Shown in pieces: positions 1,221 through 63,178 of a stretch of 64,000 bases of DNA. A model generated the notes under the pieces. That model had not been told where the DNA came from. It saw nothing but the letters and a program-made list of their open reading frames with translations, and did not search any database. The DNA lies in NCBI GenBank assembly GCA_018384735.1, contig JAHAXB010000022.1, positions 68,087 through 132,086 of the forward strand, in the 5' to 3' direction. The stretch is from Eubacteriales bacterium (GTDB lineage: Bacteria > Bacillota > Clostridia > Christensenellales > UBA1242). Every line of letters begins with the position of its first letter. The first letter of the stretch is position 1. A program made the translations under genes and the position numbers.

Positions 1221-1306
1221 CTTTGGTAAAAAGTGTTTCTTTGGTATGAGTTTATCTTCTGCAAAATAAACTATCTTATACTAACATAATGTGTTAAACT
1301 GTTCAA

Positions 1307-2080
1307 GTGGAATTCGAGTACAAAAAATCGTTAGGACAAAATTTTATTTATGACCTTGGTTTTTTGCGCACCTTGGTAAAAAAGTTGGCGGTACAACCGA
1401 CCGATACTGTGGTGGAGGTCGGCGCGGGTGCGGGAACTTTAACGCAAGCGCTGGCGGAAACCGGCTGTCAGGTTTTCAGCGTGGAAATTGATAAACGATT
1501 GGAACCAGTTTTGCAAAAACGCTTGGCACCTTATTCTAATGTAACTCTGACTTTTGCCGATGCGACCAAACATAATTTCAGTAACTTGCCACCGTTTCGT
1601 TTGATTGCGAATGTCCCTTATTACATTACCACCCCTTTGATTATGCAGTTTTTGGCTTTGCCAAATTGCCGTGAATTAAATGTTTTAGTTGCCAGCGAAG
1701 TAGCGGAGCGTATTGTTGCACCACATGGCAATGCGCTTTATGGCGCGTTATCGGTTAGTTGTCAAAATCAAGCTGAGTGCAAAATTTTAGCTTCGGTGCC
1801 ACGCACAATGTTCACGCCACAGCCCAAAGTTGACAGCGCGTTTGTGTCATTGAAAAAGAATGGTCAACCCAGTGATAAGTTCATGGAAAAATTGTTGAAA
1901 GGTGTTTTCGCTGCGCGTCGGAAAACGATGCTGAACGCTTTGTCCAGTGCGTTGAATTTGGATAAAAACACGGTAACACAAATTTTGACCACCGCGGAAA
2001 TTGATTTAAATTTACGTCCCGAACAAATTACGCCGACACAATATGTCAAAATCTGCGCTCTTTCGCGTAAATATTGTTAA
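1307..2080 (+). CDS. rsmA: 16S rRNA adenine dimethyltransferase RsmA/KsgA
   Basis: SLGQNF, VVEVGAGAGTLT (SAM motif), NVPYYITTP. GTG start 6 nt after TGtTAAACT box (1292-1300). Confidence 0.9.
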   Translation: MEFEYKKSLGQNFIYDLGFLRTLVKKLAVQPTDTVVEVGAGAGTLTQALAETGCQVFSVEIDKRLEPVLQKRLAPYSNVTLTFADATKHNFSNLPPFRLIANVPYYITTPLIMQFLALPNCRELNVLVASEVAERIVAPHGNALYGALSVSCQNQAECKILASVPRTMFTPQPKVDSAFVSLKKNGQPSDKFMEKLLKGVFAARRKTMLNALSSALNLDKNTVTQILTTAEIDLNLRPEQITPTQYVKICALSRKYC

Positions 2081-2102
2081 TTGAATTTGTTATGCTATCG
2101 CA

Positions 2103-2534
2103 ATGGCAGTTTACATTAAAAACATTATTTTGTACGACCGCGCCGGTGCCGTGGCGGGGTACATCGAAATCCACCAAGTAGCAAACGGTACGCATTTGCG
2201 TTTGAAGCATTCTTTGACCGCCAAAGGGTTAATGTTGTCCTTGGTAATTGATGGTGTAAATAAGGTATTGAAAATCACTGGCAATTTGGTCGAATATACT
2301 TTACCCAATCAGGTCGATTTAGATTATGAAATTTTCGCTTGCATTGTTCAGCAAACCGACCAAACCATGGTTTCATTGGCTAGCGGTGCGATTAACTTAA
2401 ATCGCTTAAAAGGGGAACAGGCGGTCGTCGAAATTGATCATGCGATGAAAAAAATTTGCAGCGTGGATGTTAACGGACATGGTGAATGTGAAAAGTGTCC
2501 TTACCGTGAATATTTTTTTAAACAAGCAGAGTAG
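2103..2534 (+). CDS. Hypothetical protein (143 aa), no family recognised
   Basis: Clean ORF in the coding-dense region. C-terminal GHGECEKCPY motif. ATG 6 nt after TGtTATGCT (2088-2096). 3' end overlaps the convergent methyltransferase gene by 17 nt. Confidence 0.55.
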   Translation: MAVYIKNIILYDRAGAVAGYIEIHQVANGTHLRLKHSLTAKGLMLSLVIDGVNKVLKITGNLVEYTLPNQVDLDYEIFACIVQQTDQTMVSLASGAINLNRLKGEQAVVEIDHAMKKICSVDVNGHGECEKCPYREYFFKQAE

Positions 2535-3159
2535 TATTATGCCCGCCACCTTTTTTAGCACAGAAAATTGCCAGATAAATACCTTTGTTGTTAGCAACTA
2601 ACTTAATGGTCTTAATGCGGAAATTGTTGTTTTCAAAAATGGTCACGGCTTTGGCTAACTGGTTTGCGGGGTAGCAAAAATAAACCGTACCGCCGTATTT
2701 TAAATTACGGGTACAAAGTAACGCTAAATCTTCTAACGAAAGCGTGTCGTCGTGGCGTGCTTGGCTGACATTGCTATTTTGCGCTTTTTTACCTGTAGTA
2801 AAGTACGGCGGATTACAAACGATAACATCGGCTGAGTTGGCGTTGATGATGGTGTGTAATTGTCGTGCATCTGCATGTAAAGGCGTAAATTTGGTCATGG
2901 TAAGTTTATCTTGGTTGATGGTTAAATTCTTTTCCAGTTGTTTGACCGCAGCCGAGTTAATGTCGACACTAATCATTTCACGGGGTTGATGGTTAAAAGC
3001 GATTAACAAAGTTAGCACGCCCGTGCCACAACCAACATCAATTACGCGGTCAGTTTTTTTACAGGTAACGAAATTAGCAAGCGCTACCGCATCGCTGGAA
3101 AGTTTATACAAATCGTCCGGTTGTTCGATTAAAAGTCCGGCCTCGTTCAAATATTCCAT
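2518..3159 (-). CDS. SAM-dependent N6-adenine methyltransferase, YabB/TrmN6-like
   Basis: DVGCGTGVLTL SAM-binding motif and VIVCNPPYF (NPPY/F motif IV). Size (213 aa) and location near rsmA as for B. subtilis yabB. Confidence 0.8.
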   Translation of the reverse strand: MEYLNEAGLLIEQPDDLYKLSSDAVALANFVTCKKTDRVIDVGCGTGVLTLLIAFNHQPREMISVDINSAAVKQLEKNLTINQDKLTMTKFTPLHADARQLHTIINANSADVIVCNPPYFTTGKKAQNSNVSQARHDDTLSLEDLALLCTRNLKYGGTVYFCYPANQLAKAVTIFENNNFRIKTIKLVANNKGIYLAIFCAKKGGGHNTTLLV

Positions 3160-3162
3160 CGC

Positions 3163-5427
3163 TTAAAAATACCACGGAACCCGTTTGTTTTCAACCGCTT
3201 TACGCGGGGTAATCGGTTTAGTGTTATGTGGTAAGCGCAATTCGATTAAATTACTGGGGCGTGGATTATCGCCGTTAATGCTGGCGGTTACATGGTAATG
3301 GTTAATTGTTTGTGGGTTTTTATCGGTGTAAGTATAAACACCATGCTTGTTACGAATCACGGACTGTAAAGTGTCGTCGCGGTAAATTTCGTAGGTCTGG
3401 TGTGGTAAAACATTGAACCAAAGTAAAGTGTCGTTTTGGTCGGTAACGCGTCCGTCAATCGTGGTCGGCGTGGTCATTAAATAATTTTCCGAAACTGTCG
3501 TTGGTTGGTAACGCGTAGAAAATAAAGCCGGCGTGGTTTCGTATTCTGGCGTGGCGAGATTGGCTAATTTGATTTTACCGTTCTTGTAATCTAAACTGTC
3601 TAGATTGATGTTTTTTACACTGACGGGTTGTGAAAAATGTAAATCGGGGTCGCTGATAACACCATGAATTTGTGTAGCAGCCTTGGCCAAGCGTCCGCCG
3701 CCATTAGCACCATGGGGCAAGTCATTTTCGGGTTTCATACTGGCGTTACCATGCCAAACAATCAAAACATTTTGCGGAGTGTACGAAACCAAGGTTGCAT
3801 CCGTGTTAGTGTCGGTGTTTTCGCGTTCTGTGGTGCCGGTCTTGGCGGCGATTTCCGTATTTAACATAGCCAGTTTACGCGCGGTGCCTTTCTTAGCGGT
3901 ATCAACCAACATATCGGTTAAAAGGTATGCCGCGTCGGGTGCAATCGCTTGGGGTGAGTAATTATACTTGTTAGTTAAATCAAAATAAACGGTTTGACCC
4001 TTGCGGTCGCGAATGGCGCGAACAAAACGGGCAGGTGCGTATTTGCCTTGGTTAGCTAGTGTTTGATAGCCACCCGCCAGTTCCAAAAAGGTTGTGCCAG
4101 CGTTAGTATTACCAAGTGCCATTGATAAATTTTCATCATGTAAATTTAAGCCCATTTTATTGGCAATGTTAGTTGCGCTGTTGATGGTGGTGGCTTCCAA
4201 AATTTTCACGGCGGGGATATTGTAACTATGCATTATCGCATCACGCACGGAAACCAGACCATGGTATTTACCATCCGAATTTTTCGGGTTAAAGTCGGTA
4301 TCAATTAACTGGGCGTCGTCAATTAAACTGGCGGGTTGTACTACGCCTAATTCCAAAGCCGGTGCGTAAACCAATAAGGGTTTCATTGTGCTACCAAAAT
4401 TACGTCGTGCCGTCAGTAAGGTTGGCGTCGAAGACCAAAGCGCTTTTACTTGTCCGTTGGGTGCGGATAGCATGGCGAATTTTTCACCTTCTAAGTTGTA
4501 CTCCGGATTATTCATGGCATCATACAGTAATTGTTGTTTGTCCGGCTCATAATATGTGTCGATTTGATAACCGTAGTTGATGATGTCATTTTCGCTTAAA
4601 TTTAAAAGTTGTGCGGCCTCTTTCAGCGCCATGTTTTGGTAATTAGTGCCAAGCCAAAGGTTTTCCTGCGTATTAATTGTCAATGGTTCGTCCATTGCCG
4701 ATTTGAAAACTTCGTCCGTAATTAAACCTTGGTTATGCATTAAATGTAAGATTAAATGAGCGCGTTGGCGGAAGTTGTCGTGGTGCGCAATGGGGTCATA
4801 ACGACTGGGATTTTTAATAATTCCTGCTAATCCAGCACTTTCCGCCACGGACAGTTCGGCGGGCGTTTTTTGAAAGTAAAATTCGCTGGCATTCGCAATC
4901 CCGTAAACATTATTTCCGAAATAAATGGCGTTCAGGTATAACTCGATGATTTGGTCTTTGGAAAAGTTTTGTTCCACTTTTAATGCTAAGATGGCTTCCC
5001 GTAATTTTCGTTTCAATGTTTTTTCATTGGTCAAGTATGTGTTTTTGACTAACTGTTGGGTAATGGTGCTGGCACCTTCTTTGGAATAGCCGGCCACCAA
5101 ATTGTTGGAAACTGCTTTGGCAATTCTCGGAAATGATAACCCGTGGTGGCGATAAAAAGTGCGGTCTTCAACGGCAATGAAAGCGTTGATGCAGTTGGGG
5201 TTGATTTGGTCGATGGGACAATATTGGATTGCATTGTGGGCATCAATCGTTTGTTGCTCGCTGTCATAAAAGGTCGCTGTTTGTGCCATTGTAGTCAAAC
5301 GCGTAGTGTCCAAAGTTTCACTGTGCCAAATTAACGCAAAAGCTACGCTACCGGTTACAAGCAAAAGTAATACGCCGACCAGCAAGCCGGTAAAAATTTT
5401 ACGAACGATTTTTATTTGTTTGGACAC
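3163..5427 (-). CDS. Class A penicillin-binding protein (glycosyltransferase + transpeptidase)
   Basis: N-terminal TM anchor. GT51 motifs EDRTFYRHHG, GASTITQQ, RKLREA. Transpeptidase motifs STMK, SYN, KTGT. GTG start. Confidence 0.92.
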   Translation of the reverse strand: MSKQIKIVRKIFTGLLVGVLLLLVTGSVAFALIWHSETLDTTRLTTMAQTATFYDSEQQTIDAHNAIQYCPIDQINPNCINAFIAVEDRTFYRHHGLSFPRIAKAVSNNLVAGYSKEGASTITQQLVKNTYLTNEKTLKRKLREAILALKVEQNFSKDQIIELYLNAIYFGNNVYGIANASEFYFQKTPAELSVAESAGLAGIIKNPSRYDPIAHHDNFRQRAHLILHLMHNQGLITDEVFKSAMDEPLTINTQENLWLGTNYQNMALKEAAQLLNLSENDIINYGYQIDTYYEPDKQQLLYDAMNNPEYNLEGEKFAMLSAPNGQVKALWSSTPTLLTARRNFGSTMKPLLVYAPALELGVVQPASLIDDAQLIDTDFNPKNSDGKYHGLVSVRDAIMHSYNIPAVKILEATTINSATNIANKMGLNLHDENLSMALGNTNAGTTFLELAGGYQTLANQGKYAPARFVRAIRDRKGQTVYFDLTNKYNYSPQAIAPDAAYLLTDMLVDTAKKGTARKLAMLNTEIAAKTGTTERENTDTNTDATLVSYTPQNVLIVWHGNASMKPENDLPHGANGGGRLAKAATQIHGVISDPDLHFSQPVSVKNINLDSLDYKNGKIKLANLATPEYETTPALFSTRYQPTTVSENYLMTTPTTIDGRVTDQNDTLLWFNVLPHQTYEIYRDDTLQSVIRNKHGVYTYTDKNPQTINHYHVTASINGDNPRPSNLIELRLPHNTKPITPRKAVENKRVPWYF

Positions 5428-5457
5428 AGATTATTTTGTGTTAAACTATCTCATTCT

Positions 5458-10679: not shown

Positions 10680-10701
10680 TAAACATGGTAAAATATAGGT
10701 T

Positions 10702-13275
10702 ATGGATACAGTTGAAGCGATTGCTCCGATTCCTGAAACCGTCTTTACTAATCAAAGTCGGGCAACGGTCAGTGCCTACAAACGCAAATTTAACAAAACA
10801 TGGAAAAAGACCCCGCCAACCAATCCGGAACGTTTCAAACCGAACCTGAAAATTGGTTTAACGGCGGTGCAGGTTAAGAGTCGTATTGATGATTGTCTGG
10901 TTAATTATGTCAAGCGCGGTACAACCAAATCTATTGGTGCAATTTTGTTTACCAATATCTGTACCTTTTATAACCTTCTGGCTTTAATCATTGGTGCGAT
11001 TTTGATTTATACCATGTTGGTATTACAGCCACAAATCCCGGCTGAATATTTTACTAAGGACGCTAACGGAGCCAGGTTGATTAACCCCATTCAACCAACT
11101 AGTTTACTATTTCTTGTCATCTTCGGTATTAATATGCTTATCGGCATTGTGCAGGAGTTGCGAGCTAAGTTTACGATTGAAAAATTGACTTTGGTCGCTT
11201 CCTCGCGCGTAACTGCTTTGCGTGAAGGTCAAAAGCAAGTGCTATATCCTGCCGATTTGGTTTTGGATGATATTGTGTTGTTATCCGCCGGTGGACAAAT
11301 CCAAGCCGATGGTGTCTTGTTAGATGGGGTTGTTGAAGTTAACGAAAGTTTATTGACTGGTGAATCCGTGCCAGTACAAAAGAAACCGGGCGACCGCTTA
11401 CTGGCGGGATCCTTTATTGTTAGCGGCAGTGGTAAGTATCACGTTGAGCGCATCGGTAAAGATAACTACATTCAAACAGTTGCGAATACTGCGGGACGTT
11501 ATGTTGCACCGCGTTCCGAATTGTTCAAATCGTTAAAATCAATCATCAAAGTGATTGGTGTTTTTATTGCCATCTTAACCATGGCGTTGATTACTATGCA
11601 AATTATTACCGTGGAAAATTTAGCGCCACATAATGTTTTGAAAATTATTACCCAAACCAGTGGTGCCATTTTGGGCATGATTCCGGCGGGAATGTTCCTG
11701 TTGTCTTCCATGGCGTTGATGGTTGGTGTCGTTAATTTAGGTAAGGAAAATACTTGGGTGCGTGAACTTTACTGTATCGAAATGTTGGCGCGAGTTAATA
11801 CTTTGTGCTTGGATAAAACAGGTACCATTACCGATGGCACGATGAAAGTTATCGATGTCGTTGCAATTAAAAATGAAGGCAAAAAAATGGATTTCAAACG
11901 CGTGATGTCATCCATGCTTTTTGCTTTGGAAGATAACAACCAAACCTCTTTGGCTTTGAAAGATTATTTTGGTCAAGAATGTACTTACAAGGTGCGTAAA
12001 ATTTTACCATTCTCCTCGGCACGTAAAATGTCCGCGGTAACTTTTGGCGCTGGGTTGGGAACTTTTGTGATGGGCGCACCTGAATTTATCTTTAACGACA
12101 TGAGTGCGAAATTAAATATCGTCATTAACAAATTAACCAGTCAAGGTTACCGCGTTTTGGGTGTCGGTCGTTGTGCTGGCGAAATTAAAGATGACGCTTT
12201 GACGGGAAATGTTTCGCCCGTGGCTTTAATTACCTTGCAAGATAATATTCGTCGCGAAGCACCACAGACCATTAAATGGTTTGCCGATAACGGGGTAGAT
12301 ATTCGAATCATTTCGGGTGATAATCCAATTACAGTCAGTGAGGTTGCGCGCCGTGCTGGTGTGGTCGGTTCGGAAAAATATATTTCATTGCATGGTTTGT
12401 CTAATAACGAAGTGCGGACTGCCGCGAAAGAATACACTATTTTTGGTCGCGTAACTCCCGAACAAAAACTTTTATTGATTAAGGAATTTAAGAATAACGG
12501 TCGTATGGTTGCCATGACCGGTGATGGTGTTAATGACATTTTGGCTTTGCGTGAAGCCGATTGTTCAATTGCGATGGCATCGGGCAGTGAGGCCGCGCGC
12601 AATGTTTCGCAACTGGTTTTGTTGGATAGTAACTTTTCCAGTATGCCTAAGGTGGTTTTGGAAGGTCGCCGCGTCGTTAATAATGTTCAAAAATCGTCTT
12701 CTTTGTTTTTGTTTAAAACCTTGTTGACCATTATGTTGACCATCGTCTGTGTTTTCTTTAATGAAGGTCTGTATTTCTTCGATACAACTAATTTGTTAAT
12801 TTTGGAAAGTATGGTGATTGGCATTCCGGGCTTTATGTTAGCACTTGAGCGGAACAGTCAGCAGATTAAAGGAAAGTTTATGTTTAACATTATCAAGACC
12901 TCGCTTTCCGCTGCCATTGTTGCCGTCTTGTTTGTGGTTGCTTTAATGATTTTCCGTTTCTTTGACATCTTTGATTTGAGTTCTGACGATATTTTCCGTA
13001 CTATGACTGTATATGCTGTTTTAACTACGGGCTTCGCAATGTTGTATCGCATGATTCGCCCAGTTAATGTTTTCCGCGGTATTATGTTTGTGGTCATGGT
13101 GGTCTTGTCGTTGTTCTTGATTGGTTATTTCCCCGACTTGTTCGGCATGATTAAATTGACTAACGAAGTTCATTATTTGATGGTCATGTTAATGGCTTTT
13201 ATGGGCTATGCGTTGACCGCTTTGTTCGATGGTTTGCTGTCGCAAATTAAATTATCAACCGGCAAAAATTCGTAA
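10702..13275 (+). CDS. P-type cation-transporting ATPase (substrate not assignable)
   Basis: LTGESVP, DKTGTITDG phosphorylation site, MTGDGVNDILAL hinge, multiple TM segments. TM4 motif reads IPAGM rather than PEGL. Confidence 0.9.
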   Translation: MDTVEAIAPIPETVFTNQSRATVSAYKRKFNKTWKKTPPTNPERFKPNLKIGLTAVQVKSRIDDCLVNYVKRGTTKSIGAILFTNICTFYNLLALIIGAILIYTMLVLQPQIPAEYFTKDANGARLINPIQPTSLLFLVIFGINMLIGIVQELRAKFTIEKLTLVASSRVTALREGQKQVLYPADLVLDDIVLLSAGGQIQADGVLLDGVVEVNESLLTGESVPVQKKPGDRLLAGSFIVSGSGKYHVERIGKDNYIQTVANTAGRYVAPRSELFKSLKSIIKVIGVFIAILTMALITMQIITVENLAPHNVLKIITQTSGAILGMIPAGMFLLSSMALMVGVVNLGKENTWVRELYCIEMLARVNTLCLDKTGTITDGTMKVIDVVAIKNEGKKMDFKRVMSSMLFALEDNNQTSLALKDYFGQECTYKVRKILPFSSARKMSAVTFGAGLGTFVMGAPEFIFNDMSAKLNIVINKLTSQGYRVLGVGRCAGEIKDDALTGNVSPVALITLQDNIRREAPQTIKWFADNGVDIRIISGDNPITVSEVARRAGVVGSEKYISLHGLSNNEVRTAAKEYTIFGRVTPEQKLLLIKEFKNNGRMVAMTGDGVNDILALREADCSIAMASGSEAARNVSQLVLLDSNFSSMPKVVLEGRRVVNNVQKSSSLFLFKTLLTIMLTIVCVFFNEGLYFFDTTNLLILESMVIGIPGFMLALERNSQQIKGKFMFNIIKTSLSAAIVAVLFVVALMIFRFFDIFDLSSDDIFRTMTVYAVLTTGFAMLYRMIRPVNVFRGIMFVVMVVLSLFLIGYFPDLFGMIKLTNEVHYLMVMLMAFMGYALTALFDGLLSQIKLSTGKNS

Positions 13276-13317
13276 AACTGTTTTACAAATCCGGAAAAAA
13301 TTATTACAATAATCTAT

Positions 13318-14463
13318 ATGAGTTATGAATTAGAAACAGCCGTTGAATTGAAAACAACTAAACAAGTGGAAGACGTTTTTGGTGACCCACCGGTAGTTAA
13401 TATTAAAGTCGTTGGTGTCGGCGGCGGTGGATGTAACAGCGTTAACCGTATGCTGGAAGATGGTGTTAATTTGCCCGGTGTTGAATTCATCGCAATTAAC
13501 ACTGATAAGAATGCTTTGTCGGCTAACCTTGCGCCACAAAAATTGTGTATTGGACAAAAAACCACACATGGTTTTGGTGCTGGTACGCGTCCCGAAGTTG
13601 GACAAAAGGCGGCCGAAGAAAGTGCTGACGAAATTCGTGCTGCGATTGAAGGCGCCGACCTGTTGTTTATTACCGCAGGTATGGGTGGTGGTACCGGCAC
13701 TGGTGCTGCACCTGTGGTGGCGATGATTGCCAAAGAAATGGGCATTTTAACCGTAGCAGTTGTTACTAAACCATTTAACTTTGAAGGTAACCACCGTATG
13801 TTGAATGCGGAAATTGGTATTGAAAACTTGTCAAAGTTTGTTGATGCTTATGTTGTAGTTCCAAATCAAAAATTGGTTGAACATTCTTCAATCAAAACCA
13901 GTTTCTTGGATGCGTTTAAAATGGCGGATGAAGCTTTGCGTCAAGCGGTCATCGGTTTGTCCGAAGGTATTGTTAATCCGATTTTGGTTAATGTCGATTT
14001 CGCTGATGTTAAAGTTGTTTTGGGTGATGCCGGCTTAGCTCATATGGGTGTTGGTCGTGCGCAAGGTCAAAACCGCGTCTTGGAAGCAATTAAGCAAGCA
14101 GTTGCCAGCCCGTTGATTGAAACCAGCATTAGCGGTGCAACACGTATGATTATGTGTATTAAAGGTGATAAGTCATTGCCTTTGGCGGAAGTTTCCAGTT
14201 ACGTTACGATGGCGCACAATTTGGTTCATGAAAATTGCAACATTAAATGGAGTGTTGATGTTAACGATAAATATGGCGATACGGTTGAGGTTTTGATTAT
14301 CGCTTCGGGTTTTGCACCAAATCAACAAAAGGCACGCGAAGAGATTAGCAATATGAAAGAAATGCCACAACCGCAAATGGGTACTAATCCAGAACCTGTC
14401 GCGGAAACTAAACCGAACGGTAAACCAAAGTTCTTTGAGTTCTTCAAAAACTTCAAAAAGTAA
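13318..14463 (+). CDS. ftsZ: Cell division protein FtsZ
   Basis: VIGVGGGGCN, GMGGGTGTGAAPVVA tubulin signature, C-terminal PKFFEFF peptide. No ftsA upstream. Confidence 0.97.
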   Translation: MSYELETAVELKTTKQVEDVFGDPPVVNIKVVGVGGGGCNSVNRMLEDGVNLPGVEFIAINTDKNALSANLAPQKLCIGQKTTHGFGAGTRPEVGQKAAEESADEIRAAIEGADLLFITAGMGGGTGTGAAPVVAMIAKEMGILTVAVVTKPFNFEGNHRMLNAEIGIENLSKFVDAYVVVPNQKLVEHSSIKTSFLDAFKMADEALRQAVIGLSEGIVNPILVNVDFADVKVVLGDAGLAHMGVGRAQGQNRVLEAIKQAVASPLIETSISGATRMIMCIKGDKSLPLAEVSSYVTMAHNLVHENCNIKWSVDVNDKYGDTVEVLIIASGFAPNQQKAREEISNMKEMPQPQMGTNPEPVAETKPNGKPKFFEFFKNFKK

Positions 14464-14466
14464 TCG

Positions 14467-14496
14467 TTGACTTTATTCATTTGGTTTTGCTATAAT
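14467..14496 (+). promoter_or_regulatory. Sigma-A-type promoter for rpsO
   Basis: TTGACT (14467-14472), 18-nt spacer, TGcTATAAT (14488-14496). Confidence 0.6.
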
Positions 14497-14570
14497 AATG
14501 GCATTATTGCTGTGTTTGGATTGAAATATTCTTACTCGGCTTTAATCATAAAAGGAGGTTGTCACAGAAA

Positions 14571-14831
14571 ATGACACAAAACGAAATCGCAGAAATCGTT
14601 AAAAAGTTTGGTAAAAAGGAAGGGGATACGGGCAGTCCGGCGGTTCAAATCGCTTTGTTATCAAAACGTGTTGAAGAATTAACCGAACACTTGAAAGTCC
14701 ACAAACAAGACAAGCACAGTCGTCGTGGTTTGACCTTAATGTTGGGGAAACGTAAACGCTTGTTGGACTACTTAGAAAAAACCGACCTTGAAGCATTCCG
14801 TGAATTGAAAAAACAATTAGGTTTGCGTTAA
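14571..14831 (+). CDS. rpsO: 30S ribosomal protein S15
   Basis: ...[51 protein letters not shown]... AGGAGG upstream. ATG 14571 preferred over the TTG at 14559. Confidence 0.95.
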
Positions 14832-14916: not shown

Positions 14917-14944
14917 TTGACATTTGGTTATGATATGATATAAT
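14917..14944 (+). promoter_or_regulatory. Sigma-A-type promoter for the infC-rpmI-rplT operon
   Basis: TTGACA (14917-14922), 16-nt spacer, TGaTATAAT (14936-14944). Confidence 0.55.
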
Positions 14945-14957
14945 CATAATTGAAAAA

Positions 14958-15080
14958 AAGAAGAAATAACCATTTCTCACCTTACTTGCCAATTATCTGT
15001 GCGGGAAGGTCGAACAAAAAATTACCCCCAAAATTTTTTGTGGAATGTATTGAGAAGTGGTTATTACCCCTTCTTTTTTC
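14958..15080 (+). promoter_or_regulatory. L20-leader-like attenuator upstream of infC
   Basis: Long-range helix AAGAAG..TAACCA..TTCTC (14958-14978) pairs with GAGAA..TGGTTA..CTTCTT (15052-15075), followed by TTTTTC. The position and architecture resemble the Firmicute L20 ribosomal-protein leader. Confidence 0.5.
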
Positions 15081-15101
15081 ATTATAAGGAGGTAATTCAA
15101 C

Positions 15102-15641
15102 ATTTTTAAGGAATTAAAGATTAACAGCGAAATTTCTTGTCCGGAATTAAGAGTCATCGGGGTGAACAATGAAATGATTGGTATCATCACTTTGGCACAG
15201 GCATTGAAATTGGCCGATGAAGCAGGTATGGATTTGGTTTTAATTACCGAAACTTCAAAACCGCCGGTCGCAAAAATTATCGACTATTCGAAGTTCCGTT
15301 ACGAACAAATTAAAAAAGAAAAAACACAACGTAAGGAACAACGCAAGAACATGGTTGATATTAAAGAGGTTCAATTATCAATCGGTATCCAAGAAAACGA
15401 AATCGCATTCAAACTGAACAAAGCCCGTGAATGTATTATGGACGGCGACAAAGTGAAAGTTTGTATTAACCGACTTCGTGGTCGAAAAACACAATTAGCT
15501 GACAAGGGTGTTGCTGTGGTGTCACAATTCGCCGAAAGAATGTTGGACATTGCCGACATCGAAACACCGGTTGCAAAATCGGGGGTTCCGGGACGTAACA
15601 TTAACATTATGGTGATGTTAGCCCCCAAGAAAAAGAAATAA
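15102..15641 (+). CDS. infC: Translation initiation factor IF-3, ATT (AUU) start
   Basis: The IF-3 N-terminal domain (KELKINSEISCPELRVIGVNNEMIGII) lies upstream of the first ATG/GTG. In-frame stop at 15093. ATT at 15102 is 9 nt after AGGAGG (15087-15092). Confidence 0.9.
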   Translation: MFKELKINSEISCPELRVIGVNNEMIGIITLAQALKLADEAGMDLVLITETSKPPVAKIIDYSKFRYEQIKKEKTQRKEQRKNMVDIKEVQLSIGIQENEIAFKLNKARECIMDGDKVKVCINRLRGRKTQLADKGVAVVSQFAERMLDIADIETPVAKSGVPGRNINIMVMLAPKKKK

Positions 15642-16198: not shown

Positions 16199-16833
16199 TG
16201 ATGGAAATAACTCCAAAAATTTTGAGAAAACTTCTGACCAAGAAATATCGTCAGGAGTTTTCTTTGTGTATTTTAGAGGGCGAAAAAATTATTGAAGACC
16301 ATCAAGATTTGGTGGTTAAGGTTTTCTCCGAAGATAGCTTAAAAAATTTAGAAAACTACCATGGTCGCGTCGCGGTGGCACGCATTCCGCAACCAACCGC
16401 GCCGACAACGCCATTTTTAGTACTTGATCGTGTGCAAGACCCTGGTAACATGGGTACAATTTTAAGAACGGCTTTGGCGTTTGGTTTTAAAACGGTCTAT
16501 ACGATTGATTGCGTGGACCCGTATTCTCCCAAAGTTATCCGCGCCAGCAGTGGCATGGCTTTACGGGTAAATATTATTGATACCGATTACGACCATTTAC
16601 CGACAGATACAACCTATTTTTTGGCTGATTTACATGGCGACCGACCCAAACCAATTAAGGATAAAAACTTTGGCATCGTGCTTGGCAACGAAGGGCAGGG
16701 GGTCAATCCCATTTTCTACCAAAAACCACATCAGGTCATGACAATCCCAATGGAACCGGGCTGCGAATCTTTAAACGTAGCAGTTGCAGGCGCGATAATC
16801 ATGTGTTATACTCATTTCTATGAGTGGACATAA
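16198..16833 (+). CDS. TrmH/SpoU-family RNA 2'-O-methyltransferase
   Basis: SpoU motifs LDRVQDPGNMGTILRTA, IVLGNEGQGV, IPMEPGCESLNVAVAGAI. Confidence 0.85.
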   Translation: MMEITPKILRKLLTKKYRQEFSLCILEGEKIIEDHQDLVVKVFSEDSLKNLENYHGRVAVARIPQPTAPTTPFLVLDRVQDPGNMGTILRTALAFGFKTVYTIDCVDPYSPKVIRASSGMALRVNIIDTDYDHLPTDTTYFLADLHGDRPKPIKDKNFGIVLGNEGQGVNPIFYQKPHQVMTIPMEPGCESLNVAVAGAIIMCYTHFYEWT

Positions 16834-19408: not shown

Positions 19409-19420
19409 GTGGGCAGTATA

Positions 19421-24610: not shown

Positions 24611-24619
24611 ACTGTTGAT

Positions 24620-27504: not shown

Positions 27505-27541
27505 TCTAGACAATAGCAATTGTTTATGGTATCATAATGTG

Positions 27542-29975: not shown

Positions 29976-29991
29976 CGTATACTGTAGCAAC

Positions 29992-33535: not shown

Positions 33536-33601
33536 AATACAATTTTAATGTCGAAACAATCCCCTTGTCAAGTCAAACTGGGTTGCGGTATCATCTTTTT
33601 A

Positions 33602-48024: not shown

Positions 48025-48062
48025 GCTTCAATTATATATTTAGCGCCAAAAATATGCAAACC

Positions 48063-48137: not shown

Positions 48138-48228
48138 GCTGGTGTTTCGTAAAAATCCGATTGATTTTCCATGAGTTCATTTATGCTTATGCGCGTATAT
48201 TTTGACACAGCCGACACATAATAAGGTC

Positions 48229-48435
48229 ATGGAAAAAACAACAAGCGTAAAACCAAAGCGAAAATCTAACCCGATGCAAAAGGTCGGACAAACAATTAAA
48301 GATACTTTTATGGAAATGAGTACCAGTCTGGCGGGCTGGATTGACGACACTAGCGACCAATTTAGCGCTAAGCCACCAAAGAAGACCAGCGTTTCCGGTG
48401 CAAAATTCGTTTCGACACCTAAAAAGACAAATTAA
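48229..48435 (+). CDS. Hypothetical small basic protein (68 aa)
   Basis: K/T/P-rich (KPKRKSNP, STPKKTN). ATG 48229 preferred over TTG 48202. No family recognised. Confidence 0.45.
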   Translation: MEKTTSVKPKRKSNPMQKVGQTIKDTFMEMSTSLAGWIDDTSDQFSAKPPKKTSVSGAKFVSTPKKTN

Positions 48436-48869: not shown

Positions 48870-48914
48870 AATGATAAAGTTGCCCGTAATGCCAAAACAC
48901 GGTATAATTAAGTG

Positions 48915-49379
48915 ATGACATATTATTACACAAAAGCGAAAAAATCACGTTCATATGTCAAAACCAACGGTTTGAAAATTACCCACAAAGGTCTTCCGTC
49001 CAGTTTTGTAATTTTAATTTTAACCTTTTTAGTGATTGGTATTTTAGCGGGTGGTTTTGCGGTTAAGACCTTAACCAAAAATGATTGTTTTGTTATCAAT
49101 GCTGTTAATGAACCAATTGATTTGGAAATCGGTGGAGAAGGTAACCCCGACAGTTACACAGAAACCGGCGCAACATGTGTTTTCTTTGGTAAAGATTTAT
49201 CCGACACGGTCAATGTCGAATATTTCTACCGCGAAGATATGAGTCACGACGTAGCACCAGTTACCGAAATTGACCCGTCCGTACCTGGTTATTATTATGC
49301 GGTTTATACTTCGTCCCATTTTAAATACAAAAATGTTAAATTGGTACGCACCATAACCGTAATTCAGGAGGAGGAATAA
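48915..49379 (+). CDS. Membrane-anchored protein with Ig-like (DUF5011-like) ectodomain
   Basis: N-terminal TM, then a beta-rich domain ending ...GYYYAVYTSSHFKYKNVKLVRTITV. TATAAT (48903-48908) 6 nt before ATG 48915. The domain call is tentative. Confidence 0.65.
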   Translation: MTYYYTKAKKSRSYVKTNGLKITHKGLPSSFVILILTFLVIGILAGGFAVKTLTKNDCFVINAVNEPIDLEIGGEGNPDSYTETGATCVFFGKDLSDTVNVEYFYREDMSHDVAPVTEIDPSVPGYYYAVYTSSHFKYKNVKLVRTITVIQEEE

Positions 49380-50682: not shown

Positions 50683-50692
50683 AAACATTATG

Positions 50693-54634: not shown

Positions 54635-54664
54635 ACTTCGCAAAAGAAAACTTTTGCGAAGTTA
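54635..54664. repeat. Perfect 13-bp inverted repeat with 4-nt loop
   Basis: AACTTCGCAAAAG-aaaa-CTTTTGCGAAGTT, inside a 384-bp noncoding stretch upstream of proS. Confidence 0.9.
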
Positions 54665-54897
54665 TGCGTGTATAATTTAAACGTGGTTCAAGCGTTGCGA
54701 AACGGCACAAATCAAATAAAAACAGTTTATCGGAATTATTAACATGGTAAAAATTGCCACAAAAATATTACTGTATGTTTATTGCAAAATACCACAAAAA
54801 ACTGCAACACAATAACTATATTCTGATACCGCGTACTTTCCGTGGCAAAAATTTACAACTTGTAACAAAACACAATTTATTGTATACTGATATTTAT

Positions 54898-56463
54898 ATG
54901 AAAACTATGATCATTGTGGATAAGAAAAACACTGCAAAAACTGAAAAAAAAACGACCACAGCGGCAAACACTGCGAAAAACACTGTTAAAACTACCACTA
55001 AAACGACTGGTAAAACTGCCGCAGCGTCTGACAAAAAATTTGTCACAGATATTACTGCCCTGTTGAAAAATTTTCCACAATGGTATACTGATATTGTTTT
55101 AAAGACTGAATTGTGCGATTATGGTCCGGTTAAAGGTACCATGGTTATTCGTCCGTACGGTTTCGCGTTGTGGGAAAACATCCGCAATGCTTTGGACGTA
55201 CAATTAAAAGAGCGCGAATACCAAAATTCGTATTTCCCCATGTTAATTCCGTCATCGTTCATTGAAAAAGAAAAAGAACACGTCGCCGGTTTCGCACCAG
55301 AGTTAGCTACCGTAACCCATGTCGGCGCGGAAGCTTTACCAGAAAAATTATACATCCGCCCTACTTCGGAAACAATTATTGGCAACATGTTGTCCAAGTG
55401 GTTACAAAGCTATAAAGAATTACCGATGAAATTAAACCAATGGTGTAACGTCGTCCGCTGGGAAAAAACGACCCGTCCATTCCTACGCACCAGCGAATTT
55501 TTGTGGCACGAAGCACACGCAGTATTTGCGGACGCGAAAACCGCCAAGAAAAATGCTTTGGATGATTTGTACATGTATGAAAATTTTATGCGTAATTATT
55601 TGGCTCTGCCAGTTTTAATCGGACAAAAGAGTGAAAAAGAAAAATTTGCCGGTGCTGAAACTACTTACGGTGTCGAAGCCATGATGAAAGACGGTAAAAG
55701 TTTGCAGGTCGGTACCAGTCATTACCTGGGACAAAATTTCAGCAAATCTTTCAATATTAAATTTACCGACGCCCAGAAAACCGCGCGCCATGCTTATACC
55801 ACCAGCGTGGGAACCTCTACCCGCTTAATTGGCGCGTTAGTGATGACTCATGGCGATGACCGCGGTTTGGTTTTGCCGCCACGCGTGGCACCAATTCAAG
55901 TGATCATTGTTCCAGTTGCACAACACAAACCCGGTGTCTTAAACGTGGCTGAAAACATTAAACGCACTTTAAGCAACTTGCATTACCGTGTCGCCATCGA
56001 TGACAGCGATAATACTCCGGGTTGGAAATTTAACCAATGGGAAATGAAAGGCGTACCAGTCCGCATTGAAGTTGGACCGCGTGATATCGAAAACAACGAA
56101 TGTCAAATTTCACGTCGCGACACATTGATAAAAACTACGGTTAAATTAAACCGCATTGAACGTTATGTCGCAGATTTACTGGAAAACATTCAACAAACCA
56201 TGTTAGAAAATGCGACACAAAATCGCGATAAACACATTAAGCGCGCCAAAACTTTCGGCGAATTGAAAAAAGCAATTAACGCCGGCAACTTTGTTTTGGC
56301 ACCGTGGTGTAACTGCACCGAATGCGAAGAAGCAATCAAAACCGAAACTAACGGCGTTTCCACTCGTGTTATACCTTTTGATACCGCCTTAGAAAAGAAC
56401 AGCGTATGTGTCCATTGTGGCAAACCGGCCAAAGTTGAAATTTTATTTGCTAAGGCATATTAA
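54898..56463 (+). CDS. proS: Proline--tRNA ligase (archaeal/eukaryote-like type) with K/T-rich N-terminal extension
   Basis: FPQWYTDIV, class II motifs, C-terminal zinc-binding CNCTEC...CVHCG. First ATG is 54898. The ORF-track start 54754 lies in AT-rich noncoding sequence. Confidence 0.9.
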   Translation: MKTMIIVDKKNTAKTEKKTTTAANTAKNTVKTTTKTTGKTAAASDKKFVTDITALLKNFPQWYTDIVLKTELCDYGPVKGTMVIRPYGFALWENIRNALDVQLKEREYQNSYFPMLIPSSFIEKEKEHVAGFAPELATVTHVGAEALPEKLYIRPTSETIIGNMLSKWLQSYKELPMKLNQWCNVVRWEKTTRPFLRTSEFLWHEAHAVFADAKTAKKNALDDLYMYENFMRNYLALPVLIGQKSEKEKFAGAETTYGVEAMMKDGKSLQVGTSHYLGQNFSKSFNIKFTDAQKTARHAYTTSVGTSTRLIGALVMTHGDDRGLVLPPRVAPIQVIIVPVAQHKPGVLNVAENIKRTLSNLHYRVAIDDSDNTPGWKFNQWEMKGVPVRIEVGPRDIENNECQISRRDTLIKTTVKLNRIERYVADLLENIQQTMLENATQNRDKHIKRAKTFGELKKAINAGNFVLAPWCNCTECEEAIKTETNGVSTRVIPFDTALEKNSVCVHCGKPAKVEILFAKAY

Positions 56464-56473
56464 GGAGAAAATC

Positions 56474-58816: not shown

Positions 58817-59446
58817 TTAAATCCGTTCGCTGAATTTGACCCAATCAACTACATTCCAAAACGCGTCAAGATATGCTTGGCGTTCGTTTAGGTGTTGCAA
58901 ATAGTATGCGTGCTCCCAAACATCCAAACATAAAATCGGCGTTCCGTCCTGCGGAACATTTTGGTTGGCCGTAGTGGTAATTTTCAATTCGCCTTTTGCA
59001 TTTTTAATTAACCAAGCATACCCCGAGCCAAAAATGCTGAGTGCGGCGCTGGCAAATTGTTCCTTGAAGGTTTTCCAACCACCAAAAGCCGCAGTAATTT
59101 TTTGTGTCGCTTGTGGCGTAATACCAATAACAATTTGTCCGGTGGCAGGTCGCAATTCTGTAAAGAAGAAAAAGTGGTTGTAAACTCCCCCTGCTTGACG
59201 GCGCAATTCAAGATCATGATTAGTTTCCGCATAATTCAATAATTCGGACAAAGTTAAACCTTGTAATTCTAAACGGTTTTCCAAGATTTGATTCAGGTTT
59301 TTAATGTAATTAGCTAATAAGCGGTCATAGTGCGCGCGCATAGTTTTGGCATCGATATACGGTTCCAACGCGTGTAAATTGTAACTCAAATTGATGTTAT
59401 AAAATGGGTATGTCATTTGTTCCCAGTTTTGTGTTGCATTTTCCAT
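58817..59446 (-). CDS. sodA: Fe/Mn superoxide dismutase
   Basis: HYDRLLANY..., DVWEHAYYL metal-ligand motif. Confidence 0.95.
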   Translation of the reverse strand: MENATQNWEQMTYPFYNINLSYNLHALEPYIDAKTMRAHYDRLLANYIKNLNQILENRLELQGLTLSELLNYAETNHDLELRRQAGGVYNHFFFFTELRPATGQIVIGITPQATQKITAAFGGWKTFKEQFASAALSIFGSGYAWLIKNAKGELKITTTANQNVPQDGTPILCLDVWEHAYYLQHLNERQAYLDAFWNVVDWVKFSERI

Positions 59447-59481
59447 ATCCTATCATTATGACAAACTCGACCAAAAGTTGA

Positions 59482-59985
59482 CTAAATTCGACCACGGTAA
59501 TATTTCATGGTCTTTTTAATCTTATTGACATAGGCATTGGTTTCTTTAAATGGACACGAAGTTAAACTAGTTGTGCCTTGTTCGTTAAGCCACCGTGCGA
59601 CATTGCCTTCCCCAGCATTATAAGCAAACAAGGCGGTGTCCACATCGTTAAAACGGTTAATTAAATAAGCCAAATATTTGACACCCAAGTTAATGTTTGT
59701 TGCTGGGTCGTATAAATCAATGTTAGTTTCCTTGGTTAAACTATCCGCAGTCGAAGGCAATAATTGCATTAAACCAATCGCCTGCTTGTTTGATACCTTA
59801 GTGTGGTCAAAACTGCTTTCCGCGTTAATGAGTGCGGCCACCAAAACTGGGTTAACCTGATAAGTTTGACTGGCTGCTAAAATTTCCTCACGATAGCGTA
59901 ACGGAAAACAAACATTAAAAAGCAGAAACCAAATGCCGACCAAAATAACTAGCGCGACCGCTGCCACGACCACAAATCTTCTCAC
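59482..59985 (-). CDS. Membrane-anchored lytic transglycosylase (SLT domain)
   Basis: NAESSFDH (catalytic Glu-Ser), GLMQLLP, AYNAGEGN. GTG start. Confidence 0.85.
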   Translation of the reverse strand: MRRFVVVAAVALVILVGIWFLLFNVCFPLRYREEILAASQTYQVNPVLVAALINAESSFDHTKVSNKQAIGLMQLLPSTADSLTKETNIDLYDPATNINLGVKYLAYLINRFNDVDTALFAYNAGEGNVARWLNEQGTTSLTSCPFKETNAYVNKIKKTMKYYRGRI

Positions 59986-60001
59986 TATTATATATTATTG
60001 G

Positions 60002-61528: not shown

Positions 61529-62222
61529 TCAAGAATACCTCTTCCAAACTCTTGTCGGCTTTAATTTCCTTCATCGTACCTTGCTTGATTACAGTACCAT
61601 TCTTAATCATAATTACTTTGTTACATAACTTTTCGGCAACTTCCAATACATGGGTTGAATAAAAAATCGCGCCGCCATTTTTGACAAATTCTTGCATCAA
61701 TTTTTTCAAAGTAAATGACGCTTGAGGATCCAAACCGACGAATGGTTCATCCAAAACTAATAATTTCGGATTACGCATGAACGCCGCAATTAAAACTAAC
61801 TTTTGACGCATACCATGTGAATATGATTTAATTGGTAGTCCCAAACTTTCGGTCATACCCCATTCATCCGCATAGCGCGCAATCGCTTGATCACGGTCTG
61901 CAATGGAAACACGATAAACCGAAGCGACAAAGCTTAAATACTCGTTACCGGTTAAGTTGGTATAAACATCTGGATTGTCAGGAATGTAAGCAATCACACG
62001 CTTACACGCCAATGGGTCATTTTTAATCGAATGGTTATCAATTAAGATTTCCCCGGCTTCAAAATCCAAGGTTCCCACTATGCAACGAATGGTTGTAGTT
62101 TTACCGGAACCATTTGGTCCAATAAAAGCGCAGATGTCCCCTGCTTCGACCGACAAATTTAGATTTTGCACGCCAACTTTCCCGTCAGCGTAGGTTTTGG
62201 TTAAATTACTAATTTTTAACAT
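61521..62222 (-). CDS. ABC transporter ATP-binding protein (catalytic motifs intact)
   Basis: GPNGSGKTT, YSHGMRQKL, LLVLDEPFVGLD, STHVL. Confidence 0.92.
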   Translation of the reverse strand: MLKISNLTKTYADGKVGVQNLNLSVEAGDICAFIGPNGSGKTTTIRCIVGTLDFEAGEILIDNHSIKNDPLACKRVIAYIPDNPDVYTNLTGNEYLSFVASVYRVSIADRDQAIARYADEWGMTESLGLPIKSYSHGMRQKLVLIAAFMRNPKLLVLDEPFVGLDPQASFTLKKLMQEFVKNGGAIFYSTHVLEVAEKLCNKVIMIKNGTVIKQGTMKEIKADKSLEEVFLNA

Positions 62223-62257
62223 TAAGATATTATAAAACGAAATGATAGATTACACAA

Positions 62258-63178
62258 TTAAATTAATTTATCGCCAATATTTTGGTCAATTTGAATTTGG
62301 AATTGTGCTTTGGCTTCCAAATATTGCGTAATAGCATCAATCACATCGTGAATGGTGCCTAAACTATCAGCCCCCACTAAATTGATGATTTCTTGGTTAA
62401 TTACATTAAAATGTTTCTTGTAAAATTCCAAATTAAGCTCCCTAATTTTGAATTTCTTTTCCATGTGGCGAATTAAGGTTTCAATGGCTTTGGTTTTTTG
62501 ATTGGTCGCACGCGCGGTTGGAAACATCTTGGAATCATATAACACACTTGGATTGCGTGTTAATTCGTATTTGCGCAAGTTATTCAGGTAATTATCCAAA
62601 CGCACTTCATCAAGGAATTCAAAATTACGCAACACAGGGTCATAAGGTTGTTGATAATCTGTGGAAAAGCATTCGCTACGTACCATACTATCATTAATTC
62701 CCAAAATCTTACTTTTGGAACGTGCTTGCTGTAATTTAGTTTTCAAGACGGGTTTAAAATTGTTTTGTTCGTGATTTGGTAATTTCCAACCATCAAGGTT
62801 CATAATCAAATGTTGCAAACTATACAAGTATAACGAAGTTTTCTTGGCCGTCATATATGGGGAATTTTGTTCATGATAACTCTTTACTTCGTTGATAGTA
62901 GTTTGAAATCCAGCTTCAACACTTTGTAAGGTGTGGTCATTTTTAGCACTAATCAGCGTGACAAAGGCGCGTTCAAAAGACCTTAAAATAATGCGCTCAC
63001 TCATCAACGATTCAATTCCCAAAGCAACCGTCGGATTATCGCCGGCAACTTTGTTAATAATTTTACGCAAAGCAACGTTTGAAGCTTTATTTTCTTCCAA
63101 GAAGTCCTGAATGTCAATATTCTCAAATTTCATTCCAGCTTTATCTTTACTTTCATTCATTTTCATATTATAGCACAA
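62258..63178 (-). CDS. Hypothetical soluble helical protein (~300 aa)
   Basis: Long clean ORF between two ABC systems. No motif recognised. The likely start is ATG 63160 (TGcTATAAT box at 63167-63175). Confidence 0.6.
   Translation of the reverse strand: MCYNMKMNESKDKAGMKFENIDIQDFLEENKASNVALRKIINKVAGDNPTVALGIESLMSERIILRSFERAFVTLISAKNDHTLQSVEAGFQTTINEVKSYHEQNSPYMTAKKTSLYLYSLQHLIMNLDGWKLPNHEQNNFKPVLKTKLQQARSKSKILGINDSMVRSECFSTDYQQPYDPVLRNFEFLDEVRLDNYLNNLRKYELTRNPSVLYDSKMFPTARATNQKTKAIETLIRHMEKKFKIRELNLEFYKKHFNVINQEIINLVGADSLGTIHDVIDAITQYLEAKAQFQIQIDQNIGDKLI

Follow-up and report, generated by a model that had tools for sequence, protein, structure and literature searches.

Promoter-type -10 boxes directly before start codons in a 64 kb stretch of a Clostridia genome, with Shine-Dalgarno sites on other genes

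Strong dependence on Shine-Dalgarno (SD) pairing is classically exemplified by Bacillota. Here we examine a 64 kb stretch of a genome from this phylum (contig JAHAXB010000022.1 of assembly GCA_018384735.1, positions 68,087 to 132,086; referred to as the window), in which 29 of 64 genes (~45%), counting one that has an SD site as well, carry a -10 promoter box a few nucleotides before the start codon. We establish the position of this motif, its promoter hallmarks, its selective conservation, its mutual exclusivity with SD sites and its restriction to one clade. Judging from the sequence, it is highly probable that transcription from these promoters begins on the start codon or no more than ~3 nt away from it, and that the genes are leaderless or nearly so.

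The closest described architecture is group C of GeneMarkS-2, in which a Pribnow box lies 6-8 nt from the starts of first genes, SD sites stand on the other genes and 25-50% of transcripts are leaderless (PMC6028130). This group takes in 90% of Actinobacteria and 97% of Deinococcus-Thermus, and 36/1064 (3.4%) of Firmicutes (PMC6028130); group C genomes that use the standard code are almost all high-GC (bioRxiv 10.1101/2022.07.25.500264). In the survey of Zheng et al. (2011), no Firmicutes genome exceeded 16.6% leaderless genes, and such genes were found mainly in Lactobacillales and Mycoplasma (PMC3160421); the start map of Clostridioides difficile 630 has 6 leaderless mRNAs among 1646 starts, with aGGAGg in ~90% of the 5′ untranslated regions (UTRs) (bioRxiv 10.1101/2020.08.10.244764). 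No Clostridia are reported among the Firmicutes with detectable leaderless genes in PMC3160421 or bioRxiv 10.1101/2022.07.25.500264. A first reading of the window, made from the sequence only and called here the sequence-only reading, had described the box-to-start architecture as unusual for Bacillota, which agrees with these surveys (PMC6028130, PMC3160421) and with the C. difficile map (bioRxiv 10.1101/2020.08.10.244764). A literature search on leaderless expression in Bacillota or uncultured lineages returned nothing relevant.

The architecture of the window is that of group C as defined, in an unusual host. As in Mycobacterium tuberculosis and Deinococcus deserti, boxes stand ~6-8 nt before starts (here at 29/64 genes, mode 6 nt) and SD sites elsewhere. 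On the other hand, those genomes are almost all high-GC with a loose TAnnnT (PMC3160421; bioRxiv 10.1101/2022.07.25.500264), whereas the window has 41% GC, the full TAtAaT, a frequent TGn (extended -10) and a recognisable -35, and its host belongs to a spore-forming Clostridia lineage. The low-GC groups Lactococcus-Streptococcus, Oenococcus-Leuconostoc and Mycoplasma share TAtAAT with a strong TG peak before starts (PMC3160421), but at 2.4-16.6% of genes, as against ~45% here; Mycoplasma members of group C moreover use genetic code 4 (bioRxiv 10.1101/2022.07.25.500264), whereas TGA is a stop in the window (e.g. 38974-38976). C. difficile 630 is of the same class and shares the SigA promoter consensus and the L20 leader on infC, but nearly all its mapped starts are leadered, mostly with SD sites, and the outgroup loci described below behave like C. 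difficile.

Box-to-start sites and the chance of finding them

We analysed the 64 kb of this genome and ~110 kb from relatives with our own uniform box/SD index. The window has a coding density of 95% and a median intergenic distance of 13 nt, and contains ftsZ, mutS/mutL, rpsO, infC-rpmI-rplT, secDF, spoIIGA-sigE, yabP-yqfD, glyA, proS, sodA and others; by this gene content the window comes from a spore-former lineage of Bacillota. Its closest genomes are uncultured "Clostridia bacterium" metagenome-assembled genomes (MAGs) of ruminant origin. The sole Rfam match in the window at the gathering threshold was tRNA-Asp.

The sequence-only reading had listed about 27 hexamers, with or without TGn, 5-10 nt before start codons. 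All 27 were found in place together with their start codons, and the measured gaps were indeed 5-10 nt with a mode of 6 nt (13/27 of the listed sites; 14/29 in the set with corrected starts). To avoid circularity, the starts for the chance tests were taken from an independent metagenome gene caller, as called on a matching 75 kb contig of the public gut/rumen assembly SRR12960526, and the null model consisted of 1000 dinucleotide-preserving shuffles of the same upstream regions, scored with a -10 position weight matrix (PWM) at gaps of 5-9 nt. PWM scores of at least 4 bits occurred at 22/64 genes versus 7.2±2.4 in the shuffles (shuffle maximum 17), and scores of at least 5 bits at 16 genes versus 3.6±1.8. 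The shuffled-background comparison proposed by the sequence-only reading, run on the window, thus gives a clear excess at 5-9 nt that is not due to chance. The positional profile peaks at gaps of 6, 7 and 8 nt (12, 4 and 5 genes), with 0-3 genes at each other offset, so a Pribnow-type motif lies ~6-8 nt before many gene starts. A reverse test started from the promoters and took the 28 best full matches, counting both strands: 12 of them fell 6-9 nt before an annotated start, where ~0.1 would be expected by position; 4 further matches represent 3 promoters, those of rpsO, infC (two overlapping matches) and tRNA-Asp. An annotation-free count of hexamers before ATG was rejected as the main test, since it was enriched at strict cut-offs only (37 observed versus 20 expected for the -10-to-next-ATG scan at the strictest) and the ~1600 intragenic hexamers dilute its signal; it was replaced by the start-conditioned tests and the reverse promoter test.

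With corrected starts, the 64 genes divide into 28 with a box only, 18 with an SD site only, 1 with both and 17 with neither. The start codons of the 29 box-to-start genes are 25 ATG, 4 GTG and no TTG. The box-to-start architecture is therefore confirmed as an observation. The individual sites, with the gap given between box and start codon, are as follows; the three additional candidates were absent from the list of the sequence-only reading.

1292..1309, + strand: TGtTAAACT, 6 nt, GTG 1307; rRNA adenine dimethylase, ksgA-like; the start is the 5′-most possible in its open reading frame (ORF)
2088..2105, + strand: TGtTATGCT, 6 nt, ATG 2103; 143-aa protein
3157..3174, - strand: TGgTATTTT, 6 nt, ATG 3159; methyltransferase; -35 TTGAAA at 17 nt; the promoter lies within the 3′ end of the PBP gene, whose TAA stop (3163-3165) falls in the spacer
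5425..5438, - strand: CAAAAT, 5 nt, GTG 5427; class A PBP; additional candidate with a weak -10; this start gives a plausible N-terminus, MSKQIKIVRK and then a membrane helix
5439..5460, + strand: TGtTAAACT, 10 nt, ATG 5458; radical SAM, UPF0004; longest gap in the set; caller's start 5491
10686..10704, + strand: TGgTAAAAT, 7 nt, ATG 10702; P-type ATPase; -35 TTGCTA at 17 nt
13305..13320, + strand: TACAAT, 7 nt, ATG 13318; ftsZ; -35 TTTACA at 17 nt
16804..16822, + strand: TGtTATACT, 7 nt, ATG 16820; YebC/TACO1 family; promoter within the SpoU methylase gene (end 16833)
19406..19423, - strand: TGaTATACT, 6 nt, ATG 19408; DnaD-like; TTGCCA at 18 nt, kept in the relatives L088 and L092
20331..20351, + strand: TGgTATAAT, 9 nt, ATG 20349; secD; caller's start 20319
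24608..24622, + strand: TAAACT, 6 nt, ATG 24620; HD-domain protein
26156..26173, - strand: TGtCAAAAT, 6 nt, ATG 26158; XerC/D-like recombinase; additional candidate
26265..26278, + strand: TATCAT, 5 nt, ATG 26276; spoIIGA; box kept in L088, where the gap is 7 nt
27527..27544, + strand: TGgTATCAT, 6 nt, ATG 27542; floA; -35 TAGACA at 17 nt
29978..29994, + strand: TATACT, 8 nt, ATG 29992; ybeY; L088 has TATAAT at 5 nt instead
33533..33547, - strand: TAAAAT, 6 nt, GTG 33535; PadR-family protein; -35 TTGACA at 18 nt
33589..33604, + strand: TATCAT, 7 nt, ATG 33602; YgjP-like; -35 TTGTCA at 18 nt; caller's start 33548; a downstream GTG is preceded by an SD-like motif, so the ATG start is provisional
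38974..38993, + strand: TGaTATAAT, 8 nt, ATG 38991; 588-aa AlaRS-like protein; box invariant in 4 relatives, spacer 62% identical
41459..41498, + strand: TTGTCA, 17 nt, TATAAT, 8 nt, ATG 41496; uvrD/pcrA; spacer variable in sequence and length (6-8 nt)
43711..43726, - strand: TAGAAT, 7 nt, ATG 43713; PemK-type toxin
43729..43746, + strand: TGgTATAAT, 6 nt, ATG 43744; lgt; box invariant, start ATG in 3 genomes and GTG in 3
46028..46067, + strand: TTGACA, 17 nt, TGtTATAAT, 8 nt, ATG 46065; inositol monophosphatase family; 12/12 consensus matches; promoter within thiI
48022..48060, - strand: TTTGCA, 18 nt, TATAAT, 6 nt, ATG 48024; glyA
48217..48231, + strand: CATAAT, 6 nt, ATG 48229; 68-aa ORF; additional candidate
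48880..48917, + strand: TTGCCC, 17 nt, TATAAT, 6 nt, ATG 48915; 154-aa protein, downstream of a terminator at 48847-48862
54860..54900, + strand: TTGTAA, 17 nt, TATACT, 9 nt, ATG 54898; proS; kept in 3 relatives
59444..59463, - strand: TGtCATAAT, 8 nt, ATG 59446; sodA; -35 TAGTCA at 18 nt
59983..59997, - strand: TAATAT, 6 nt, GTG 59985; SLT-domain protein; weak, without TG and with a poor -35; caller's start 59973
62220..62234, - strand: TATAAT, 6 nt, ATG 62222; 233-aa protein
63158..63175, - strand: TGcTATAAT, 6 nt, ATG 63160; 300-aa protein

Could the boxes nevertheless be chance matches in AT-rich DNA, or sit before misassigned starts while cryptic SD sites mark the true ones? Single matches are cheap, with ~1600 hexamers of at least 4 bits in the window, and seven starts (5458, 20349, 33535, 33602, 46065, 54898 and 59985) differ between the sequence-only reading and the caller. 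The start at 46065 was settled in favour of the former, as the caller's ATG 46116 is ATA in 5/5 relatives, and so was that at 54898, where the sequence upstream lacks conservation and has many indels. The start at 20349 fits as well, given the conserved TTGTAG-17-TGgTATAAT, and the other four (5458, 33535, 33602 and 59985) are placed by promoter geometry alone. Among the 29 box-to-start genes, 20 start at the 5′-most possible codon of the ORF, no upstream alternative start has an SD motif before it, and a single gene has a downstream in-frame start with one; what is found is an AUG or GUG at the predicted 5′ end without an alternative SD-led start. Together with the shuffle test, the positional peak, the reverse test and the cross-species conservation described below, this leaves the chance explanation with hardly any credibility: boxes at no more than background frequency are refuted at the level of sequence statistics.

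About 6 of the 62 starts called by the gene caller differ from those preferred here, namely those of the inositol monophosphatase, proS, infC, secD, radical SAM and SLT genes; the first two calls are contradicted by the relatives and that of infC by its SD-ATT context, while the last three starts are preferred on promoter geometry. As the caller models no start-abutting promoters, a gene finder that allows for leaderless starts is required for MAGs of this lineage.

Promoter hallmarks and conservation of the boxes

TGn precedes 14 of the 29 boxes, compared with 8.3% of all ~1600 -10-like hexamers in the window (p=1.6e-8), and a -35 with at least 4/6 matches lies at 16-18 nt in 16/29, against a background of 15.9% (p=1.4e-6). 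When the 27 listed sites are aligned on the hexamer, TG occupies the extended -10 position in 17, hexamer positions 1, 2 and 6 hardly vary, as is typical of sigma-70 -10 boxes, and a TTGaca-like block appears 17-18 nt upstream (T in 22/27, G in 14/27). This block and the -35 enrichment bear out the claim that several boxes have a matching -35 at 17-18 nt. Both enrichments hold separately in the co-directional and in the divergent genes, and they are as strong in the co-directional subset (TGn 9/18; -35 with at least 4/6 matches 11/18). Transcription starts usually favour a pyrimidine at -1 and a purine at +1; T or C precedes the start codon in 20/29, which fits this preference, with the first base of the codon (A or G) as +1. 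The 6-nt mode, which is the usual distance from -10 to +1, likewise supports a transcription start at the start codon.

For conservation, relatives were gathered by a GlyA scan, one genome per species, which returned three kinds of locus: six syntenic relatives (protein identity 91-96%, DNA identity 75-83%), two MAGs from termite gut, L011 and L012 (protein identity 67-71%), and ~72 outgroup loci (identity at most 59%). A SecD metagenome scan gave a second set of 7 loci, one of them long (L088), which sufficed for footprinting 7 starts and not for statistics. Two of the syntenic contigs, L010 (CAZXAV010000037.1) and L027 (JAMPCO010000001.1), come from MAGs labelled "Prevotella sp." although they are syntenic with this Clostridia lineage and their GlyA is 91-93% identical; the label is probably due to mis-binning or mislabelling.

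Footprinting was performed on 9 genes with 2-6 relatives at 75-83% DNA identity, with identity counted against the window. The -35 hexamer is 94% identical, the -10 hexamer 97% and the start codon 97%, whereas the spacer between box and start is 63% identical, below the 73% seen at third codon positions. The last nucleotides before the start thus carry no sequence signal, while the hexamers are under selection. The clean intergenic cases, glyA, proS and secD, display the same pattern. In the six close relatives, glyA has TTGCAT or TTGCTT, 17-18 nt, TATAAT, 6-7 nt and ATG, and the sequence of the spacer varies freely; in L011, L012 and all outgroups, AGGAGG takes the place of the box before glyA. 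The TTGTAG-17-TGgTATAAT of secD is kept in 5 relatives with a variable spacer sequence. Alignments of the AlaRS-like, uvrD, lgt, pemK, inositol monophosphatase, proS, secD, dnaD-like, HD, spoIIGA, floA and ybeY genes give the same picture, and the SD motifs of tyrS, the MBL gene and the 138-aa protein gene are likewise conserved in relatives.

Initiation is favoured by weak structure around the start codon, and an AT-rich motif close to it might also act on the ribosome: TAnnnT could be an AU-rich non-SD binding or unstructured signal on leadered mRNAs of the Bacteroidetes type, i.e. group B of GeneMarkS-2, in which the same non-SD motif stands at all genes and SD is lacking. What we found is a box in a distinct subset of genes and AGGAGG at internal cistrons, from which the box is missing. 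Such a signal would not explain the -35 at 16-18 nt and the TGn in correct register, the nearly invariant hexamer positions 1, 2 and 6 or the neutral evolution of the 5-10 nt directly before the start, and it would leave divergent genes with starts 30 nt apart without any promoter. We regard this alternative as very improbable. The motif is of promoter type, with a -35 or an extended -10 present.

Leaderless transcription from these promoters, which the sequence-only reading had suggested, draws support from the 6-nt spacing, the TGn, the -35, the pyrimidine at -1, the neutral spacer and the mutual exclusion of box and SD. The boxes would be housekeeping (SigA-type) promoters made of a -35 TTGaca, a 17-18 nt spacer, often TGn, and TAtAaT. 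RNA polymerase would start on the first base (A or G) of the start codon or, where the gap is 8-10 nt, 1-3 nt before it, and the resulting mRNAs would have neither a 5′ UTR nor an SD sequence. By analogy with studied leaderless mRNAs, the 5′-terminal AUG or GUG may be recognised directly by 70S ribosomes, or by 30S subunits with initiator tRNA. Downstream cistrons and genes that need a leader (rpsO; infC-rpmI-rplT with its L20 leader) retain AGGAGG. A search for transcript-derived contigs encoding glyA found one contig, which is a DNA assembly.

Shine-Dalgarno genes, leaders and compaction

The contrast class described by the sequence-only reading is as it had stated: AAGGAG or AGGAGG precedes mutS, mutL, rpsO, rpmI, rplT, the dnaI-like gene, nifU, the MBL gene, tyrS and the aminopeptidase gene, GGGGGA precedes sigE, and infC has AAGGAGGT (15086-15093), although before an ATT at 15102. 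SD sites of these three forms (AAGGAG, AGGAGG or GGGGGA) stand on 18 of the remaining genes. The supposed absence of SD from box genes holds for 28/29, with one gene carrying both signals. The proposed systematic dichotomy is correct in that box and SD are mutually exclusive (Fisher p=2e-5), but it is incomplete, since 17/64 genes have neither. As AGGAGG is kept at downstream cistrons and leader-regulated genes, the anti-SD pathway appears to be still in use; that the anti-SD itself is intact we infer solely from the AAGGAGG(T) consensus of the 18 genes.

Three genes in the window show what a leadered promoter looks like.

14467..14573, + strand: rpsO; TTGACT, 18 nt, TGcTATAAT, ~67-nt leader, AAAGGAGGT, ATG 14571
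14917..15104, + strand: infC-rpmI-rplT; TTGACA, 16 nt, TGaTATAAT, L20 leader, AAGGAGGT, ATT 15102
40990..41072, + strand: 138-aa protein; TAGACA, 17 nt, TAATAT, ~45-nt leader, GGGGGA, ATG 41070

The L20_leader (RF00558) was matched at full length at 14952-15085 (+), with 51.6 bits, below the gathering score of 58.7, and E = 2.7e-7. It begins 7 nt past TGaTATAAT (box end 14944), where the transcript should start. We place infC at 15102-15641, with the ATT 8 nt after AAGGAGGT and an N-terminus of (M)FKELKINSEISCPELRVIG; on this SD-ATT context the caller's GTG 15162 was displaced. The classic non-canonical start of infC is therefore retained in a genome rich in leaderless-type genes, and control by SD or leader has been kept where it is needed, as the L20 leader and the AUU start illustrate.

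Leader-based regulation is common for aminoacyl-tRNA synthetase genes in Bacillota. No T-box or other leader RNA was detected at E <= 1 before proS (54376-54897), tyrS/trpS class Ib (56464-56473) or the AlaRS-like gene (38977-38990). As the proS and AlaRS-like promoters abut the start codons, leader-based regulation of these tRNA synthetase genes seems to be absent here.

The genes are packed tightly around the boxes. Many box promoters are contained in the final 35-60 nt of the gene before them, and in five cases a stop codon lies within or beside the next promoter: the TGA stops of NYN (38974-38976) and DHDPS (19421-19423) form the TG-n of TGaTATAAT and TGaTATACT, the TAA stops of queA (24608-24610, in TAAACT) and of the 138-aa gene (41484-41486, in TATAAT) are inside the -10 hexamer, and the TAA of the PBP gene (3163-3165) is in the spacer ahead of ATG 3159. 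In the divergent pairs 5427/5458 and 43713/43744 the start codons are 30 nt apart, with two -10 hexamers adjacent on opposite strands, which leaves no room for leaders.

Given the same packing, the label of "operon-first" genes is not established: 18 of the 29 follow a co-directional gene at a distance of -55 to +42 nt, too close for a terminator to fit in between. Read-through transcripts of these 18 genes probably also exist, and their boxes may be internal promoters superimposed on them. One could go further and suppose that the promoters are real but secondary, and that packed genes are expressed mainly from read-through polycistronic mRNAs, with SD-less starts reached by termination-reinitiation or 70S scanning over 3-42 nt; few intrinsic terminators were seen between such genes. 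Against this, the co-directional boxes are as rich in TGn and -35 as the divergent ones, 11 divergent or isolated cases are left unexplained, and other internal cistrons of the same operons have an AGGAGG or an ATGA overlap, which means that reinitiation without SD does not apply generally in these operons. As a general account this is unlikely, and for a subset of genes it can coexist with leaderless transcription.

Several points weigh against the leaderless explanation. In 18/29 genes the -35 and -10 share sequence with the upstream gene's coding region, and in the 30-nt divergent pairs each -35 lies within the coding region on the other strand, so that coding constraint accounts for part of the hexamer conservation. 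The 17 genes with neither signal, e.g. DHDPS, TspO and many overlapping internal cistrons, follow neither mode, the majority being overlapping or 4-nt-coupled internal cistrons. Where the gap is 8-10 nt (9 genes), the leader may be 1-3 nt long instead of absent. Among the listed sites, 59985, 5458, 2103 and the start at 33602 are weak. Finally, we infer both the position of the transcription start and the mode of ribosome recruitment from sequence.

The neither class includes some first genes, such as DHDPS and TspO. In DHDPS (20267-20330 upstream, minus strand), a conserved TATAC(A/C/G) that lacks the last T stands 5 nt ahead of the ATG. TspO was considered as an extra box-to-start case and rejected: its conserved TATAAA is 30 nt upstream of ATG 53980 (region 53969-54030) with no SD, which implies a short leader without SD.

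Distribution among relatives, and neighbouring observations

The distribution of the trait was assessed with an annotation-light index that was the same for every fetched locus, giving the share of ORFs with a box at box-to-start distance, with a box at an offset control, and with an SD site.

Window: box-to-start 40%, offset control 13%, SD 24%
Close relatives: box-to-start 48%, offset control 12%, SD 12%
72 outgroup loci (978 ORFs): box-to-start 9%, offset control 16%, SD 51%
Outgroups of GC 0.33-0.45: box-to-start 8%, offset control 16%, SD 55%

The box-to-start trait is confined to a narrow lineage. Of the two termite-gut MAGs, L011 (WQZR01000022.1, GlyA 67% identical) has SD-type starts only in its 13.5 kb, and L012 (WRBH01000014.1, GlyA 71%) is mixed in its 21 kb, with box-to-start uvrD and several other genes but AGGAGG before glyA; its uvrD ortholog has TGaTATACT, 6 nt and ATG. 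Going by these 13.5 kb and 21 kb, with no proper phylogeny behind them, the trait may have been acquired gene by gene.

Perhaps the series from L011 (SD only) through L012 (mixed) to the ruminant-gut clade (about half of the genes converted) reflects an independent and recent switch from SD to leaderless expression in low-GC, standard-code, spore-forming Clostridia, with intermediates caught; we offer this tentatively, as falling a little short of an even chance. In this clade the switch would go together with extreme compaction, with promoters in upstream genes, stops doubling as -10 or TGn, divergent starts at 30 nt and no synthetase T-boxes. If the switch is real, the clade would be a natural series for what permits or drives the loss of 5′ UTRs in a strongly SD-dependent ribosome background. 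The close relatives and the SD-using sister MAGs provide orthologous pairs in both states (e.g. glyA) for studying conversion. A clostridial lineage with ~45% leaderless-type genes implies that SD dependence can relax within the class.

The sequence around the boxes offered a few further observations. The uncalled 68-aa ORF at 48229-48435 (+), MEKTTSVKPKRKSNPMQKVGQTIKDTFMEMSTSLAGWIDD..., is kept in 6 relatives with indels in multiples of 3 and a variable spacer, and its box is CATAAT or CATACT in 7 genomes. It lies in the apparently empty 890 nt between glyA and the next gene, which also hold further small ORFs, among them a 27-aa ORF at 48529 with AAGGAG before it, and the terminator at 48847-48862.

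The palindrome CTTGTCAAG (33564-33572) is the shared -35 of the PadR-family gene 33535 (-) and the YgjP-like gene 33602 (+). A second palindrome, TTGTCAATCTAAATTCATTGACAA (50715-50738), kept in 5 relatives, was a candidate operator upstream of the S8 peptidase gene; it was rejected as such, being in fact two abutting, back-to-back -35 boxes, those of tRNA-Asp (-) and the S8 peptidase gene (+). The tRNA-Asp promoter (50682-50721, -) is a perfect TTGACA-17-TATAAT that ends 10 nt before the mature 5′ end, so that RNase P would have just ~3-4 nt of 5′ leader to remove. In the interval from the XerC-like gene to spoIIGA there is a conserved TGACGAA on the minus strand (~26205-26215, ~65 nt upstream of the spoIIGA start), which matches TGNCGAA, the Spo0A-box consensus.

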